Shown here piece after piece: positions 27,227 to 32,064 of a stretch of 64,000 bases of DNA. The stretch is from NCBI GenBank assembly GCA_030587475.2, contig JAUQYZ020000230.1, positions 1-64,000 on the forward strand. Reading direction: 5' to 3'. Origin of the DNA: Candidatus Sigynarchaeum calidifontis. Lineage in GTDB: Archaea; Asgardarchaeota; Lokiarchaeia; Sigyniarchaeales; Sigyniarchaeaceae. The position numbers and the translations under genes were made by a program. The stretch's first letter is position 1. Each line of letters starts with the position of its first letter. The notes under the pieces are model-generated. The model had not been told where the DNA came from. It did not search any database and saw nothing but the letters and a program-made list of their open reading frames with translations.

Positions 27227-28009
27227 TCACGCAACGAGCAGCACGATGAAATACACCATGAAGAAATTTCCGAGGATGATCCCGATGCTCTTGATGTTGC
27301 CGGCGGATGCCCTGGGAACGCGGTAAATGTAGATGCAAGCCAGTGGAACGAAGGCGATCGGCACGATGTTGAAATCCCGCGACAAGATAAACAAGACGAG
27401 CCCCGACACGAGCGTGAAAATCGAGAAAAGTATCACGATGGACCGCACGCGTGCCGGCGAGAAGCGCCGGGCCAGCGCGTCGCGGTCGAGTGCCTCGTGC
27501 ATGAACTGGGAGAGCACGCCGAACAAGTACAAGCTTGCCAGCCAGAGCCACTCGACCGGATCGTCTGGCACGTGAATGGTAAAAAAAGGCATGCATATCT
27601 CGGCGAATACTTGCACGAAACCACTCGCCAGCGGGATCCGCTTCATCCCGAAGTTGTAGACCGCGACGAGAACCATGGCGGTTCCGATCCAGAGGGCGTT
27701 GAGCAGGTTGATAGCGACCGCGTCCACGAAGCAGAGCAGCGCCAGGCAGATACTTCCCATGGCGATGGCGGCGAGTTCCTTGGCCCGCCACCCCGTGTCG
27801 CGATCCTTGTCGACAATGTCGTTGATGACATTGCCCGCGACGGCAAGGAATGCCCAGCCGAGAATCGTCTTGAGGTGGTCGAGGATCGTGAATCCCGGAT
27901 CGGATTTATTGGCATACAATGCGATCAAGCACGGGATGACGACGACGAAGAGGTAATCGAGGCGTATGGCCTCCCAGCGGCTGTGCGTGGTCTTCGAGGG
28001 TTCGGACAC
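27227..28009 (-). CDS. UbiA prenyltransferase superfamily membrane protein
   Basis: Asp-rich GNVINDIVDKDRD, YN and HEALDRD motifs; multiple TM helices. Confidence 0.8.
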   Translation of the reverse strand: MSEPSKTTHSRWEAIRLDYLFVVVIPCLIALYANKSDPGFTILDHLKTILGWAFLAVAGNVINDIVDKDRDTGWRAKELAAIAMGSICLALLCFVDAVAINLLNALWIGTAMVLVAVYNFGMKRIPLASGFVQVFAEICMPFFTIHVPDDPVEWLWLASLYLFGVLSQFMHEALDRDALARRFSPARVRSIVILFSIFTLVSGLVLFILSRDFNIVPIAFVPLACIYIYRVPRASAGNIKSIGIILGNFFMVYFIVLLVA

Positions 28010-28072
28010 GGCTCATCGAAACAAGCAAGAACACGCTCCCACAAAAAGTCAACGCCACTGCCCTTCCCGGGA

Positions 28073-28750
28073 TCATGGATACCAGGGATGGCCTGGCGGG
28101 ATCGCCGGCGGGTTCCAGACGGGAACCCATGCGCCCTCGAGCGCGAAAAAACTGAGCTCGACCCCGGCGATGAGGATGAGCGCGGTGATGCCGACCGCCA
28201 CGGCTTGCATCCCGATCCGCTTTCTTGCAGTCCACGTTTCCTTCGTGTCGATCCAGTAGGTGCACAGTGCCCAGCCGAAGATGCAATAAAACCACGCGAG
28301 CCAGTTGATGATCGGGATGCCAAGCCAGCCGAAGCCGCGCGGCCCCCATGCGCTGGGCGTCCATACCCAGTTCCCGAAATAGACCTGGAAGGGATCGAGC
28401 ACGACGTCCCAGCACGTGGCGATCAGGGACGTGATCATGGCCGCGACGAACAGGTGCTTGTTCAAGGCCGGCCATGCCTTGAACATGACCTCGGCCATCG
28501 ACATGGTCACGTAACTGACCAGGATCCACCCGAGCTGCGTGACCACGGGAACGAGGGAGCCGGGGAAGTAGAGCACGTAGCCCCACTCCGTGTACGAGCC
28601 CTGGACCACGCCCGAGTTCTCCATGACCAGCCCCATCAAATACCCGACGCCGAAGATGCGCGCGGCGTATTCCTTTCCTTTCGTCTTGAGGCAATGCACG
28701 AGGAGACCCGCGATCCCCCCGCAAACGAGCAATTCAATCACCAAGCCCAT
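28073..28750 (-). CDS. CruF/DUF422 carotenoid-hydratase-like membrane protein
   Basis: MENSGV..GSY, VP...GW, WDVVLDP...GNWVW and GIPIINWLAWF motifs. Confidence 0.75.
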   Translation of the reverse strand: MGLVIELLVCGGIAGLLVHCLKTKGKEYAARIFGVGYLMGLVMENSGVVQGSYTEWGYVLYFPGSLVPVVTQLGWILVSYVTMSMAEVMFKAWPALNKHLFVAAMITSLIATCWDVVLDPFQVYFGNWVWTPSAWGPRGFGWLGIPIINWLAWFYCIFGWALCTYWIDTKETWTARKRIGMQAVAVGITALILIAGVELSFFALEGAWVPVWNPPAIPPGHPWYP

Positions 28751-28936
28751 TCACGCGGCCTCCCTTGGCTTTTCACGGGCGATCTTCACGCGGGCGACGA
28801 TGTATATCACGATCCAAAACAAGGGAAACACGACGGTCGGCAAGTACGAGTACAGCCCGAGGACGATCTCGGCGACGAAGAACGCGGCCGTGATGGCGAC
28901 GTATATCCAGAACGGCAAGGCATGTATCTTTTTCAT
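28751..28936 (-). CDS. Small two-TM membrane protein
   Basis: 61-aa hydrophobic ORF whose stop abuts the ATG of the CruF-like gene. Confidence 0.65.
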   Translation of the reverse strand: MKKIHALPFWIYVAITAAFFVAEIVLGLYSYLPTVVFPLFWIVIYIVARVKIAREKPREAA

Positions 28937-29292: not shown

Positions 29293-29850
29293 TCAGATTT
29301 GCTCGCCGCTGCGCTTGAGCAGCGTTTTCACGAGGTTCAGGAATGCGTCGTCAACATTAGTTCCTTCTTTTGCGCTGGTCTCGATAAAGTCGATGGCGCC
29401 TATCTTTTTCTTTAGATCCTCGCCCTGGCTGGTCTGGATTTTCTTTATATCGGTGAGGTCGGCCTTGTTGCCAACCAGGATGAAGATCTTCTCGCCCGTC
29501 GTGTTCTCCGCGTAGTCCTTGACCCAGGTTGCCTCCAAATTATTGAATGTATCGGTCCGGGTAACATCATAAACGAGCATCGCGGCACTGCATCCTTTAT
29601 AGTAGAGTTTACGCACCGATGCATATCTCTCTTGGCCTGCTATGTCCCAGAGCACCAAATTGCAGAGAATCTCTTTCCCTTTCTTGTCCTTGAAGCTGAT
29701 CTCTTTCAAGATGAGATTCACGCCCAGAGTTGGCTTGTATTCTTTCATGAATTTCTTTTGAATGAACCGGGCGATGAGGCTCGTCTTTCCGACTGCATAG
29801 TCTCCTATAACCGCTATCTTGAACACGAAATCGGGTTCCTTGTCCGCCAT
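29293..29850 (-). CDS. Rab-like small GTPase (Ras superfamily)
   Basis: G1 GDYAVGKTS, G2 PTLGV, G3 WDIAGQE, G4 GNKAD, G5 ETSAK; RabF-like YYKGC and LVYDVT; no C-terminal Cys motif. Confidence 0.95.
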   Translation of the reverse strand: MADKEPDFVFKIAVIGDYAVGKTSLIARFIQKKFMKEYKPTLGVNLILKEISFKDKKGKEILCNLVLWDIAGQERYASVRKLYYKGCSAAMLVYDVTRTDTFNNLEATWVKDYAENTTGEKIFILVGNKADLTDIKKIQTSQGEDLKKKIGAIDFIETSAKEGTNVDDAFLNLVKTLLKRSGEQI

Positions 29851-29870
29851 CGTGATTCCAGCGCTCCTGG

Positions 29871-30416
29871 TTATTGTCTCTTCAACTCGAACGTGGTGCT
29901 TGGTTGCTCCATTTTACTCACGACATCGCTCGCGACGAATTTCGCACCGTCGGGCGACGAATTCGCCGCGGCAACCTCGAAAAATCCCGCCCAAATGTAG
30001 CTAGCCGAGAAAAGCGGGTCATTGTTAACCGTTATCTTGAATCCGTCCTTGTCTTTCTTGATCGTGATGTCCCAGGTCCCGTCTATCCATTTCTTCATCT
30101 TTTCGATGAGCGTTTCGAGGCTATACCCGTAAGGGTGCAAGTATATGGCAAACTTGCGCCCCGTCTCGCGAAGCAGCGCCTTGGACCCGTATCCAAGCAG
30201 CCGGTTCATCGCCGTGGTCAGCCGGATCAAGTCGCTCTTCGGTAGCGACGCGATCAGCGAAGGTCGCACGTGCGCATACTTCGTGCTCAAGCCCGCGAAC
30301 CTGATGACCGACATCTTGCCATCTTGGCCGATGATCTCGTTCAGTGCTTCAAGGAGAGCCGAGAACACGACTTGCTTGACCTTCTCGGTTTTTCCCTTCT
30401 CCTTACGCTTGGCCAT
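29871..30416 (-). CDS. V4R / TRAPP-Bet3-like fold protein lacking Zn-binding cysteines
   Basis: ALLEALNEIIG..G...VIRFAGL...LLRETGRKF pattern; FKITVNNDPL...WAGFF...FEL; contains no Cys. Confidence 0.6.
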   Translation of the reverse strand: MAKRKEKGKTEKVKQVVFSALLEALNEIIGQDGKMSVIRFAGLSTKYAHVRPSLIASLPKSDLIRLTTAMNRLLGYGSKALLRETGRKFAIYLHPYGYSLETLIEKMKKWIDGTWDITIKKDKDGFKITVNNDPLFSASYIWAGFFEVAAANSSPDGAKFVASDVVSKMEQPSTTFELKRQ

Positions 30417-30543
30417 GGCGCTCACTCGAGCTCACTTGATGGATGCTGTGTTATATTATTCCCCCGGACAATATATAAAGAGGTATTACGGGGGCACGGT
30501 TCCCTCGATCTTGATCGGGGACCGGCCGCGGGTCGCGTCCGGG

Positions 30544-32064
30544 TCATTTCGGCGGGGCGGGTCGACGGGGCAGCTTCAGCTTGCCCTTTTTATAGAGCCA
30601 GAACAACATGACGGCCGCTGCGCCAACCGCAATGGCCACCACGACGAGAACAATCGTCAGTGTCCAATCATCTTGCGGGACGATTTCGACTTGCTGGGCA
30701 TAGATGTCCCAGTTCGTTCCACTTCGATAATCCTCCCAGGCAATAATGGCTCTGCCAGGATTGACGCAAATGATGGCCAGACCATTCTGCATGTCGTCTG
30801 CACAGCAGATGCACCTGCCGTTGGTTTCCCATTCTATCGTGCCGGTCGGCCCGATTCGCTGGGCGTAGATATCGTCGTGAGCAGGCCCGATCCCGGGATC
30901 ATCCCCCCACGTGGCAAATGCACCCCCCTGGCCGTCGCTGCACACGCGTACTTGATAGCAATTGTGCTGGCCGTGGCTCAACGGGATGCCATTCGCGGCC
31001 CATTGCACCGCGCCGGGTCCGCTAATATGCTGGATGTATGCAACATTATGAAGTGCATCCCGTTGATCCTCCCAAGCGATGAAGGCACCGCCACTTTCGC
31101 TTGCCACGATGGTCGCTCCTATTTGAGCCCCTGGAACCGTGCAGATGGCGGTGCCGTTTGCCGTCCACGCGGGGACGCCGCTAGGCAAGAGGCGCTGTGC
31201 ATAGATGTCCCCGTCCCCGTCGACTCGCATGTCTTCCCACGCGATGATGGCCCCGCCGGCCCCGTCGCTGCATAACTGGGGGTTTTGTTGCGAGCTCGTG
31301 GGGATGTTGCAAGCTGGAACGCCGTCCATGTCCCATTGGAGAAAGCCGCTCGCGTTCAGCCGCTGGGCATACACGTCATTGTTGCCGCGAGAGTCATCCC
31401 ACGCGATGATGGCCCCGCCAGCGCCGTCGCTGCATATTACCGGATCGAGTTGGTTTCCCGCGGCCGTGCAAACGGGGATGCCGCCCGCGTTCCATCGGAG
31501 GAAACCGCTCGCGTTCACCCGTTGGGCGTAGATGTCGTAATTCCCGTTCCGGAGATCTCGCCACGCGATGATGGCCCCGCCGGCCCCGTCGCTGCACAAG
31601 CACGCGAGATCTTGATTTGCAGTGGACGTGCATGCCGGCACCCCGTTCGTTGCCCAGTAGGTGACTCCCGTGTTGCTCACCTTTTGGGCATAAATGTCGG
31701 CCCCCGTCCCGCCATCGCGGGTCCAGGCGATGATCACCCCGTCGCCGCTGGCCTTGACCATGCGCACGTTGTAATCGGGGATCCCGCTCCCGCCCCGGGA
31801 CACGTTGATCCCGTTCAGACTCCAGAGTATCCCCCCTTCCGGGCTCAATCGCTGCATGAAGATATCTTCCGTGCCGTTCCTTCTATCGATCCAGGCAATG
31901 AACGACCCGCCTTGCCCGTCGGGGCAAATGGCAACGTTGTCTTGGTTCGACGGGGCGGTGCAGACTGCAATCCCGTTCTCCCTCCACGCGGTAATGCCTT
32001 GCAGCAACAGCGTTAGCAATACAGCTCCGAAAAGGAGCATGATAATTTTGTCCTTCCTTGGCAT
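30544..32064 (-). CDS. Surface-anchored beta-propeller repeat protein (8 repeats, signal peptide, C-terminal TM)
   Basis: Eight W..nG.pvC...Q....csDGaGGAIIAWeD.R...DIYAQR units; N-terminal hydrophobic signal; C-terminal TM followed by a basic tail. Confidence 0.85.
   Translation of the reverse strand: MPRKDKIIMLLFGAVLLTLLLQGITAWRENGIAVCTAPSNQDNVAICPDGQGGSFIAWIDRRNGTEDIFMQRLSPEGGILWSLNGINVSRGGSGIPDYNVRMVKASGDGVIIAWTRDGGTGADIYAQKVSNTGVTYWATNGVPACTSTANQDLACLCSDGAGGAIIAWRDLRNGNYDIYAQRVNASGFLRWNAGGIPVCTAAGNQLDPVICSDGAGGAIIAWDDSRGNNDVYAQRLNASGFLQWDMDGVPACNIPTSSQQNPQLCSDGAGGAIIAWEDMRVDGDGDIYAQRLLPSGVPAWTANGTAICTVPGAQIGATIVASESGGAFIAWEDQRDALHNVAYIQHISGPGAVQWAANGIPLSHGQHNCYQVRVCSDGQGGAFATWGDDPGIGPAHDDIYAQRIGPTGTIEWETNGRCICCADDMQNGLAIICVNPGRAIIAWEDYRSGTNWDIYAQQVEIVPQDDWTLTIVLVVVAIAVGAAAVMLFWLYKKGKLKLPRRPAPPK
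31236..31600. repeat. Near-identical intragenic DNA repeats at 162-nt spacing
   Basis: ccacgcgatgatggccccgcc-gc-ccgtcgctgca at ~31237, 31399 and 31561. Confidence 0.85.

Follow-up and report, generated by a model that had tools for sequence, protein, structure and literature searches.

Asgard genomes encode dozens of eukaryote-like small GTPases, almost none of which has an assignable partner, and operon layout rarely helps to find one (Tran et al., 2024). Here, we ask whether a locus of Candidatus Sigynarchaeum calidifontis joins such a GTPase to a regulator of its own, and whether this pair is an antecedent of eukaryotic trafficking control. The locus lies within positions 1 to 64,000 of contig JAUQYZ020000230.1 (assembly GCA_030587475.2); this whole stretch of 64,000 nucleotides (nt) is referred to as the window. 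Two minus-strand open reading frames (ORFs) occupy the interval 29293-30425. The upstream gene, called X in the following (29871-30425), encodes 184 amino acids (aa) from a GTG, or 181 aa from the ATG at 30416, the position where its closest homologues begin. The downstream gene (29293-29850) encodes a Ras-family GTPase of 185 aa that is Rab-like. A preliminary description of the locus had read X as a V4R/Bet3-like protein and the pair as a regulator and a GTPase that prefigure the TRAPP-Rab control of eukaryotes.

We establish here the fold of X, its kinship with V4R proteins, the conservation of the gene pair, the dedicated subfamily to which its GTPase belongs and the housekeeping-type setting of both genes. 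On balance and with moderate confidence, we favour the view that X and the GTPase make up a dedicated two-gene signalling unit of a sensor or regulator and its GTPase. V4R sensors and co-encoded partners of small GTPases are already known; their combination at this locus is the novelty. One GTPase subfamily with a fixed, single-copy neighbour of ligand-sensor fold across a whole Asgard class provides a concrete one-to-one pair for testing. A regulatory role of X, if real, would make it the first GTPase regulator of V4R fold and would offer an experimental handle on Rab-like control in archaea. A protein with the Bet3 superfamily fold whose gene adjoins that of a Rab-like GTPase is not for that reason a proto-TRAPP, and a popular inference is tempered accordingly.

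Conservation of the X-GTPase gene pair

The pair was followed through 400 genomes of the Asgard phylum, whose lineages are given by family codes, f1-f7 being families of the window's class. The X family was found in 131 of the 400 genomes with a narrow profile and in 135 with a broader one, usually in one copy each. All of these genomes belong to f1-f7, and none of the approximately 239 genomes from the other 26 Asgard families carries a member. Gene order was read at 30 loci from genomes (L007-L036, among them that of the window); at 28 of them there is room downstream of X. In 27 of these 28, a small GTPase gene follows X directly on the same strand, and every metagenome contig examined has the same arrangement. 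On contigs with X homologues of 57-70% identity, the next gene encodes a Ras-family protein of 184-201 aa and begins 12-24 nt after X or overlaps it by 4 nt. The near relatives have a spacer of 12-24 nt or an overlap of 4-14 nt, while the gap ranges overall from a 14-nt overlap to about 170 nt. The pairing seen in the window is thus conserved, within one Asgard class.

Such an order could in principle arise by chance. The genome of the window holds 58 Ras-family matches in about 5 megabases, and the chance that a given gene is followed by a Ras-family gene is roughly 1%. Since the arrangement nevertheless recurs in nearly every related genome, the adjacency of X and the GTPase gene is more than chance. 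The flanking genes were compared in contexts of 12 kilobases (kb). The genes around the pair are of housekeeping type (LeuRS; a ribosomal-protein operon). LeuRS, UbiA and other flanks are common to the near clade only. In f2-f7 the flanks differ and consist of a ribosomal protein S13 operon, an NAD-dependent epimerase gene, or a PCC-domain gene together with an aminotransferase gene; the link from X to the GTPase alone persists. It is this survival of the link through a complete turnover of the flanks that is the real argument for a pairing of X and the GTPase.

The partner GTPases were placed in a tree of 22 sampled downstream partners, tandem copies and the 44 Ras-like domains of the window's own genome. 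The window's GTPase, 17 of the 22 partners and the tandem duplicates form one clade of 26 rows with a support of 99 in the Shimodaira-Hasegawa-like approximate likelihood ratio test (SH-aLRT), and this clade leaves out all 43 other Ras-like paralogues of the same genome. Five partners from f5-f7 lie just outside, in a wider group (SH-aLRT 88) that also contains three paralogues from the window's genome. The tree suggests that most of the partner GTPases belong to one dedicated orthologous subfamily.

Several variants of the pair were observed. Some loci of f3 and f4 (L046, L048, L051, L054, L055, L059) have small GTPase genes on both sides of X, the upstream ones being tandem duplicates within the partner-GTPase clade. 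In f4 the block consists, in this order, of a PCC-domain gene (PF03479), an optional GTPase gene, X, the GTPase gene and a class I/II aminotransferase gene. In f6 and f7 the pair is adjoined by a gene for a 318-aa protein (L041:7136-8092, L044:6891-7847, L045:4372-5310), whose C-terminal part (residues 152-311) is a Ras domain, preceded by some 150 N-terminal aa without assignment. At L047:5977-6880 (genome G130, f2) the ORFs of X and the GTPase share about 190 nt, and that of the GTPase is truncated at the N-terminal end, probably through a frameshift or misassembly of this genome. A Yip1-domain gene stands beside a divergently oriented gene for a 385-aa Rag/Arf-like GTPase at L062:162-2165 (GCA_011365055.1), two genes from the paralogous V4R protein P0019.

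In the window, X and the GTPase gene would probably be transcribed together. Their spacer (29851-29870, minus strand) has exactly the 20 nt that were noted before; it reads CCAGGAGCGCTGGAATCACG and contains AGGAG, which resembles a ribosome-binding site. The spacer has no room for a promoter of its own. Upstream of X, about 35-60 nt before its start, lie two TATA-like A/T-rich elements on the minus strand, tttatatatt (30479-30470) and aataatataa (30460-30451), that form a putative archaeal promoter for both genes. Similar A/T-rich boxes stand upstream of X in the relatives L040, L005, L001 and L003, and in the same loci no TATA-like boxes were found in the X-GTPase spacers. On the other side, a T6 run (29157-29152, minus strand) about 135 nt past the GTPase stop and a second run, T5 (29073-29069, minus strand), are possible archaeal oligo-T terminators that may end the two-gene unit. 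The next downstream gene (start 28936) has its own TATA-like cttataaatag. Because TATA-like boxes occur before X only, the spacer is a mere 20 nt with its AGGAG, and the T-runs come after the GTPase, co-transcription can reasonably be inferred. A scan for bacterial-type promoters and terminators gave nothing relevant, as expected in an archaeon.

Fold and descent of protein X

Protein X was modelled with AlphaFold2 with good confidence (predicted local distance difference test, pLDDT, 87.1; predicted template modelling score, pTM, 0.84), and only residues 1-10 are disordered in the model. A Foldseek search with this model placed H-NOX proteins on top (E 1.6e-6, probability 1.00, template modelling score about 0.6). 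A second structure search with VIA-align, which is independent of Foldseek, again gave H-NOX (4u99_A, 6mx5_A; Z 11.0, root-mean-square deviation 3.7, 160 residues aligned, model residues 16-184), and the V4R protein MJ1460 (2oso_A; Z 10.5, root-mean-square deviation 4.3, 132 aligned). BcsD and YslB (Z about 8.4-10), Thorarchaeota TRAPPC3 (7yh2; Z 9.2, 118 aligned), PoxR (5fru; Z 9.1), DmpR (6iy8; Z 8.7), a chain of the Drosophila TRAPP core (7b6d_F; Z 8.4), one of yeast TRAPP (3cue_B; Z 8.4) and Bet3 (2cfh_A; Z 7.3) were also matched. The TRAPP-type chains cover a range of Z 7.3-9.2, with alignments of 113-120 residues. A gap of 1-2 Z units is small, and what it shows is that X is not especially close to Bet3. 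Of the structural matches, the first 22 are without exception members of the H-NOX/V4R/BcsD/YslB/TRAPP superfamily, and unrelated folds reach Z ≤5.5. As judged from the model, X has the fold of the H-NOX/V4R/Bet3 superfamily.

The sequence points to V4R within this superfamily. A profile of the X family, searched against the PDB, has MJ1460 as its sole credible match (E 1.7e-6). A single-sequence phmmer search with X against the PDB returned only a spurious designed protein and was set aside, and NCBIfam gave nothing useful. The relative P0016 matches the narrow X profile with E 2e-33 and passes the cut-off of the Pfam V4R model with E 1.2e-11. Four of 29 family members match Pfam V4R at E ≤0.01 and one has a weak match to HNOB (E 0.0047). 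The Pfam TRAPP model PF04051 finds none of the 29 at E ≤0.01, and for the window protein it gives no match at E ≤1. By sequence, X is best placed as a divergent branch of V4R, so that the V4R-like character claimed in the preliminary description is borne out by both fold and profile.

The X family is small: among 1.84 billion representative proteins, a profile search found only 27 clusters. Close homologues go by the name 'hypothetical protein' and come from Candidatus Sigynarchaeum springense and from metagenome-assembled genomes of Lokiarchaeota and Promethearchaeota. Two relatives carry the JGI label 'predicted hydrocarbon binding protein', the name of COG1719 (V4R). The window's genome has two more V4R-bearing ORFs that pass the Pfam cut-off (C171:26516-27241 and C170:833-964). 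One of them is 389 aa long with two V4R domains, the other 247 aa; the latter lies about 4 kb from a Ras-like GTPase (C170:4972-5430).

The H-NOX matches raise the question of haem. Haem binding in H-NOX proteins is defined by a proximal histidine and a Y-x-S-x-R motif. No conserved histidine was found among the invariant or near-invariant columns of both family alignments, close homologues having S, A or T where X has H97, and the X sequence has no Y-x-S-x-R motif. Haem binding by X is therefore not expected, and the idea of a haem-binding H-NOX protein was rejected.

Protein X contains no cysteine, as already noted in the preliminary description, which had also compared the segments FKITVNNDPL (residues 129-138) and WAGFF (residues 145-149) with Bet3. 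Both segments are present, but the comparison with Bet3 does not hold. Where X reads NNDPLF, its relatives read NCPFC, and these relatives have further C-terminal cysteines. The NNDPL segment is a degenerate V4R zinc-knuckle strand rather than a Bet3 signature. In a family tree rooted with a paralogous V4R branch that lacks the GTPase, the GTPase-linked X family (SH-aLRT 100) splits into three clades; two retain cysteines and the window's (SH-aLRT 99) is without. Cysteines of the CPFC type are retained in the sister clades and in the outgroup. The tree points to a single derived loss in the window's clade and to a cysteine-free state that is convergent with eukaryotic Bet3, not inherited. Because the loss is derived within one clade, it does not tie the X family to the cysteine-free Bet3 of eukaryotes. 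The family reads as a lineage-restricted V4R offshoot in which the Bet3-like lack of cysteines arose independently. For comparison, mouse TRAPPC3 has replaced its zinc site (Tran et al., 2024; PMC10933270).

These results bear directly on the notion that X is an exchange factor of the Bet3/TRAPPC3 type, or a part of one, and that the pair is an antecedent of the control of Rab1 and Rab11 by TRAPP. X does share its fold with the Bet3 family (7yh2, 7b6d_F, 3cue_B, 2cfh_A), it lacks the zinc cysteines as eukaryotic Bet3 does, its partner is Rab-like, and the pair is conserved with weak support in silico for binding. However, H-NOX and prokaryotic V4R proteins match X better and over more residues than TRAPP subunits do (160 and 132 against 113-120), the sequence link leads to the MJ1460 V4R protein and not to PF04051, the cysteine loss is a single derived event, and the family is absent outside the window's class. 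Moreover, the catalytic Rab-binding surface of TRAPP is formed by its longin/roadblock subunits. In the 3CUE structure it is reportedly the longin subunits Trs23 and Bet5 that provide most of the binding site for Ypt1, to which Bet3 adds just its C-terminal tail. No longin or roadblock gene adjoins the pair in the window or in any of the relatives' loci and lineages checked, although such partners may be encoded elsewhere in the genome. Hence, what stands of the envisaged forerunner of eukaryotic trafficking is a conserved pair and a superfamily fold. A proto-TRAPP ancestry finds no specific support, and we regard it as the least probable of the readings considered here.

The Rab-like GTPase and the proposed signalling unit

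The GTPase matches Pfam Ras with E 7e-49. Among the PDB sequence matches listed, all 60 are of Rab, Sec4 or Ypt type, the best being Rab2A (E 1.1e-36), with Rab11 and Sec4 among the best as well; the Thorarchaeota Rab 7ezb is matched with E 8.7e-33. The motifs G1 (GDYAVGKT, residues 16-23), G2 (Thr41 in KPTLG), G3 (DIAGQE, residues 69-74), G4 (NKAD, residues 128-131) and G5 (TSAK, residues 158-161) can all be read, and the catalytic Gln73 is intact. LGVNL, WDIAGQE, RYASVR (residues 75-80), YYKGC (residues 83-87) and LVYDVT (residues 92-97) partly resemble the RabF1-F5 motifs as defined by Pereira-Leal and Seabra, IGVDF, WDTAGQE, RFRSIT, YYRGA and LVYDIT. The only cysteines are at positions 63 and 87, the C-terminus reads ...LLKRSGEQI, and the protein thus has no prenylation motif. 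The G motifs, the RabF-like segments and the missing prenylation cysteine are thus all as had been described from the sequence before. A C-terminal cysteine is missing from the window's GTPase and from all 22 partner orthologues, and the protein is therefore best described as Rab-like and not as a strict prenylated Rab. Just five positions, all weakly discriminating, are specific to the partner clade (V9, L42, G143, A152, F155); these are too few, and an attempt to deduce an interface from them was dropped. A defence-system reading was dropped as well, as PADLOC had no match for X and only a P-loop fragment match for the GTPase.

How might such a unit work? We propose a direct contact between X and its cognate Rab-like GTPase. 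Like other V4R/H-NOX proteins, X would hold a small ligand in its pocket, probably a hydrophobic one, and would couple the state of this pocket to the nucleotide cycle or to the output of the GTPase switch. Control could run in either direction, from a regulator or towards an effector, and the proposal favours X as the sensor or regulator. Two working analogies guide it. Stand-alone H-NOX proteins exert their effect by binding to a signalling protein encoded in the same operon and may serve as a model for X as regulator of a co-encoded enzyme. In the MglA-MglB system a small GTPase has a co-encoded regulator, and MglB-type partners regulating MglA provide the second model. A 2026 preprint in which V4R, fused to ParA-type NTPases, is treated as a sensor of soluble ligands fits the sensor reading of X.

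Several points weigh against this signalling unit. X matches no Pfam family at E ≤1, nor does it match any at E ≤0.01 in the scan of the 29 family members. One locus, L021, has no GTPase gene downstream of X and is the sole exception in the set, and the paralogous V4R branch (P0019, P0024) is without a downstream GTPase too. Related genomes are not independent samples, and with the zinc site gone the pocket and ligand binding of X could be degenerate. Fused X-GTPase proteins were not found among proteins of 348-2000 aa, which is a weak negative. Finally, the predicted complex of X and the GTPase scored 0.47 (runs 0.42, 0.47 and 0.51) and came with no interface; in this score band the tool is expected to err more often than not, except where binding was likely from the start.

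The best control of the complex prediction scored 0.00, and contacts coincide to at least 94% among the three runs, with a partner pLDDT of at least 83. When the tool was calibrated, 58 of 80 solved complexes and 2 of 110 mismatched pairs attained the mark; of these, only 7 of the 80 complexes and both mismatches did so with a score of 0.60 or less. The run used our own alignments, so these counts hold only roughly. Because gene order gives a strong prior, we take the score as modest support, and the prediction lends weak support to a binding of X to the GTPase. A weak score of this kind would also agree with two genes that are co-transcribed or adjacent for the same process and whose products form no complex. 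The lack of fusion proteins would fit such a linkage, as would the spacers of 40-170 nt in f4, which could hold separate promoters. However, adjacency and order persist amid wholly different flanks, the GTPase belongs to a dedicated set of orthologues and X occurs as a single copy, a pattern typical of interacting products. Furthermore, stop and start codons of X and the GTPase overlap in several lineages (L004, L009, L015, L035, L061). A linkage without contact hence seems rather improbable to us.

Control may also be read the other way round. The GTP-bound GTPase would recruit or release X, which would act as an effector and carry a hydrophobic molecule, such as an isoprenoid or a lipid, at the membrane, with the lysine-rich N-terminal tail of X aiding membrane contact. 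Ligand binding or transport has been proposed for Asgard TRAPPC3/V4R proteins (Tran et al., 2024; PMC10933270). The N-terminus of X is indeed polybasic and predicted to be disordered (7 K/R in residues 1-17), the GTPase has no lipid anchor, and a UbiA gene comes after the pair in the near clade (L001, L003, L005), in the window after a CruF-like gene. Yet the UbiA linkage is limited to the near syntenic clade and gone in f2-f7, and in the family alignment the basic tail is clade-specific; in the relative P0012 it is much longer. No result here separates an effector from a regulator. We consider the carrier role unlikely, though it deserves some weight, and retain the sensor or regulator role of X as the preferred one.

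A stronger form of the regulator role would have a stand-alone protein of V4R/Bet3 fold act by itself as a direct regulator of the nucleotide cycle of a Rab-like GTPase, be it as exchange factor, GTPase-activating protein (GAP) or in the manner of a GDP-dissociation inhibitor (GDI). We judge this to be very improbable. If true, the coupling of this fold to Rab would have existed in Asgard archaea before, and independently of, the longin-based assembly of TRAPP, and the pair would represent a ligand-gated archaeal Rab switch.

Further neighbours of the pair in the window were also characterized. Directly upstream of X lies a gene (30544-32064, minus strand) for a 506-aa protein that has a hydrophobic segment at either end and about eight degenerate repeats following the pattern GG.IIAW.D.R.G..DIYAQR. 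Its sole Pfam match is DUF4114, under the cut-off with E 4e-5. A tandem-repeat scan found no repeats in this gene at the DNA level, and the sister genome matches only about 100 aa of the protein. The next unit downstream (27227-28936, minus strand) comprises a small transmembrane gene, the CruF-like gene (Pfam Caroten_synth, E 9e-12) and the gene for the UbiA-family prenyltransferase. In L001, L003 and L005 the UbiA gene stands directly after the GTPase with a gap of 30-65 nt, an arrangement of the near clade only. The UbiA/CruF linkage was downgraded as a functional clue, given its restriction to a closely related and broadly syntenic clade.

Comparison with known systems

Full-text literature searches found no description of a gene pair of V4R/Bet3 protein and GTPase in Asgard or other archaea. 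Tran et al. (2024; PMC10933270), who solved structures of a Thorarchaeota Rab and TRAPPC3, state that in MK-D1 the genes for GTPases do not as a rule share an operon with those for roadblock, longin or TRAPPC3 proteins, and that this complicates the search for partners. Measured against this finding, the X-GTPase pair is an exception and not an example.

The closest relatives of X are stand-alone archaeal V4R proteins (PF02830, COG1719), represented by MJ1460 (PDB 2oso/2osd), which has the same fold and is the sole PDB sequence match of the family profile. Orthologues of X score above the Pfam V4R cut-off and have the cysteines CPFC...C...C; the window's X, in contrast, falls below Pfam detection, has no cysteine, and possesses an extra N-terminal helix and a polybasic tail. 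X is also locked to a Rab-like GTPase gene, a linkage that was not found described for V4R in the literature searched. The H-NOX proteins (PF07700; Tt H-NOX 1u55, So H-NOX 4u99) are the best full-length match of X, with 160 of about 170 ordered residues aligned, but identity is only 11-14% and the X family is without their conserved histidine.

With Bet3/TRAPPC3 (7yh2), X shares the superfamily fold and, as with eukaryotic TRAPPC3, the lack of a zinc site. The connection to a Rab-type GTPase is real for TRAPP, whereas for X it is inferred. There is no sequence link between the two, the structural match is shorter and weaker than that to H-NOX and V4R, X has no adjoining longin partners, and its cysteine loss is independent and recent.

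In gene organization, X resembles two other systems, MglA-MglB and an Asgard operon of a LAMTOR1-like protein, a Rab-like GTPase and a DENN protein. The latter was reported in a preprint that mentions neither V4R nor TRAPP (Liu et al., 10.1101/2020.10.19.343400). In all of these cases a small GTPase is kept, in many genomes, beside a small, non-enzymatic predicted regulator. The fold of X, however, is that of V4R/H-NOX and not roadblock, longin or DENN, and its unit consists of two genes only.

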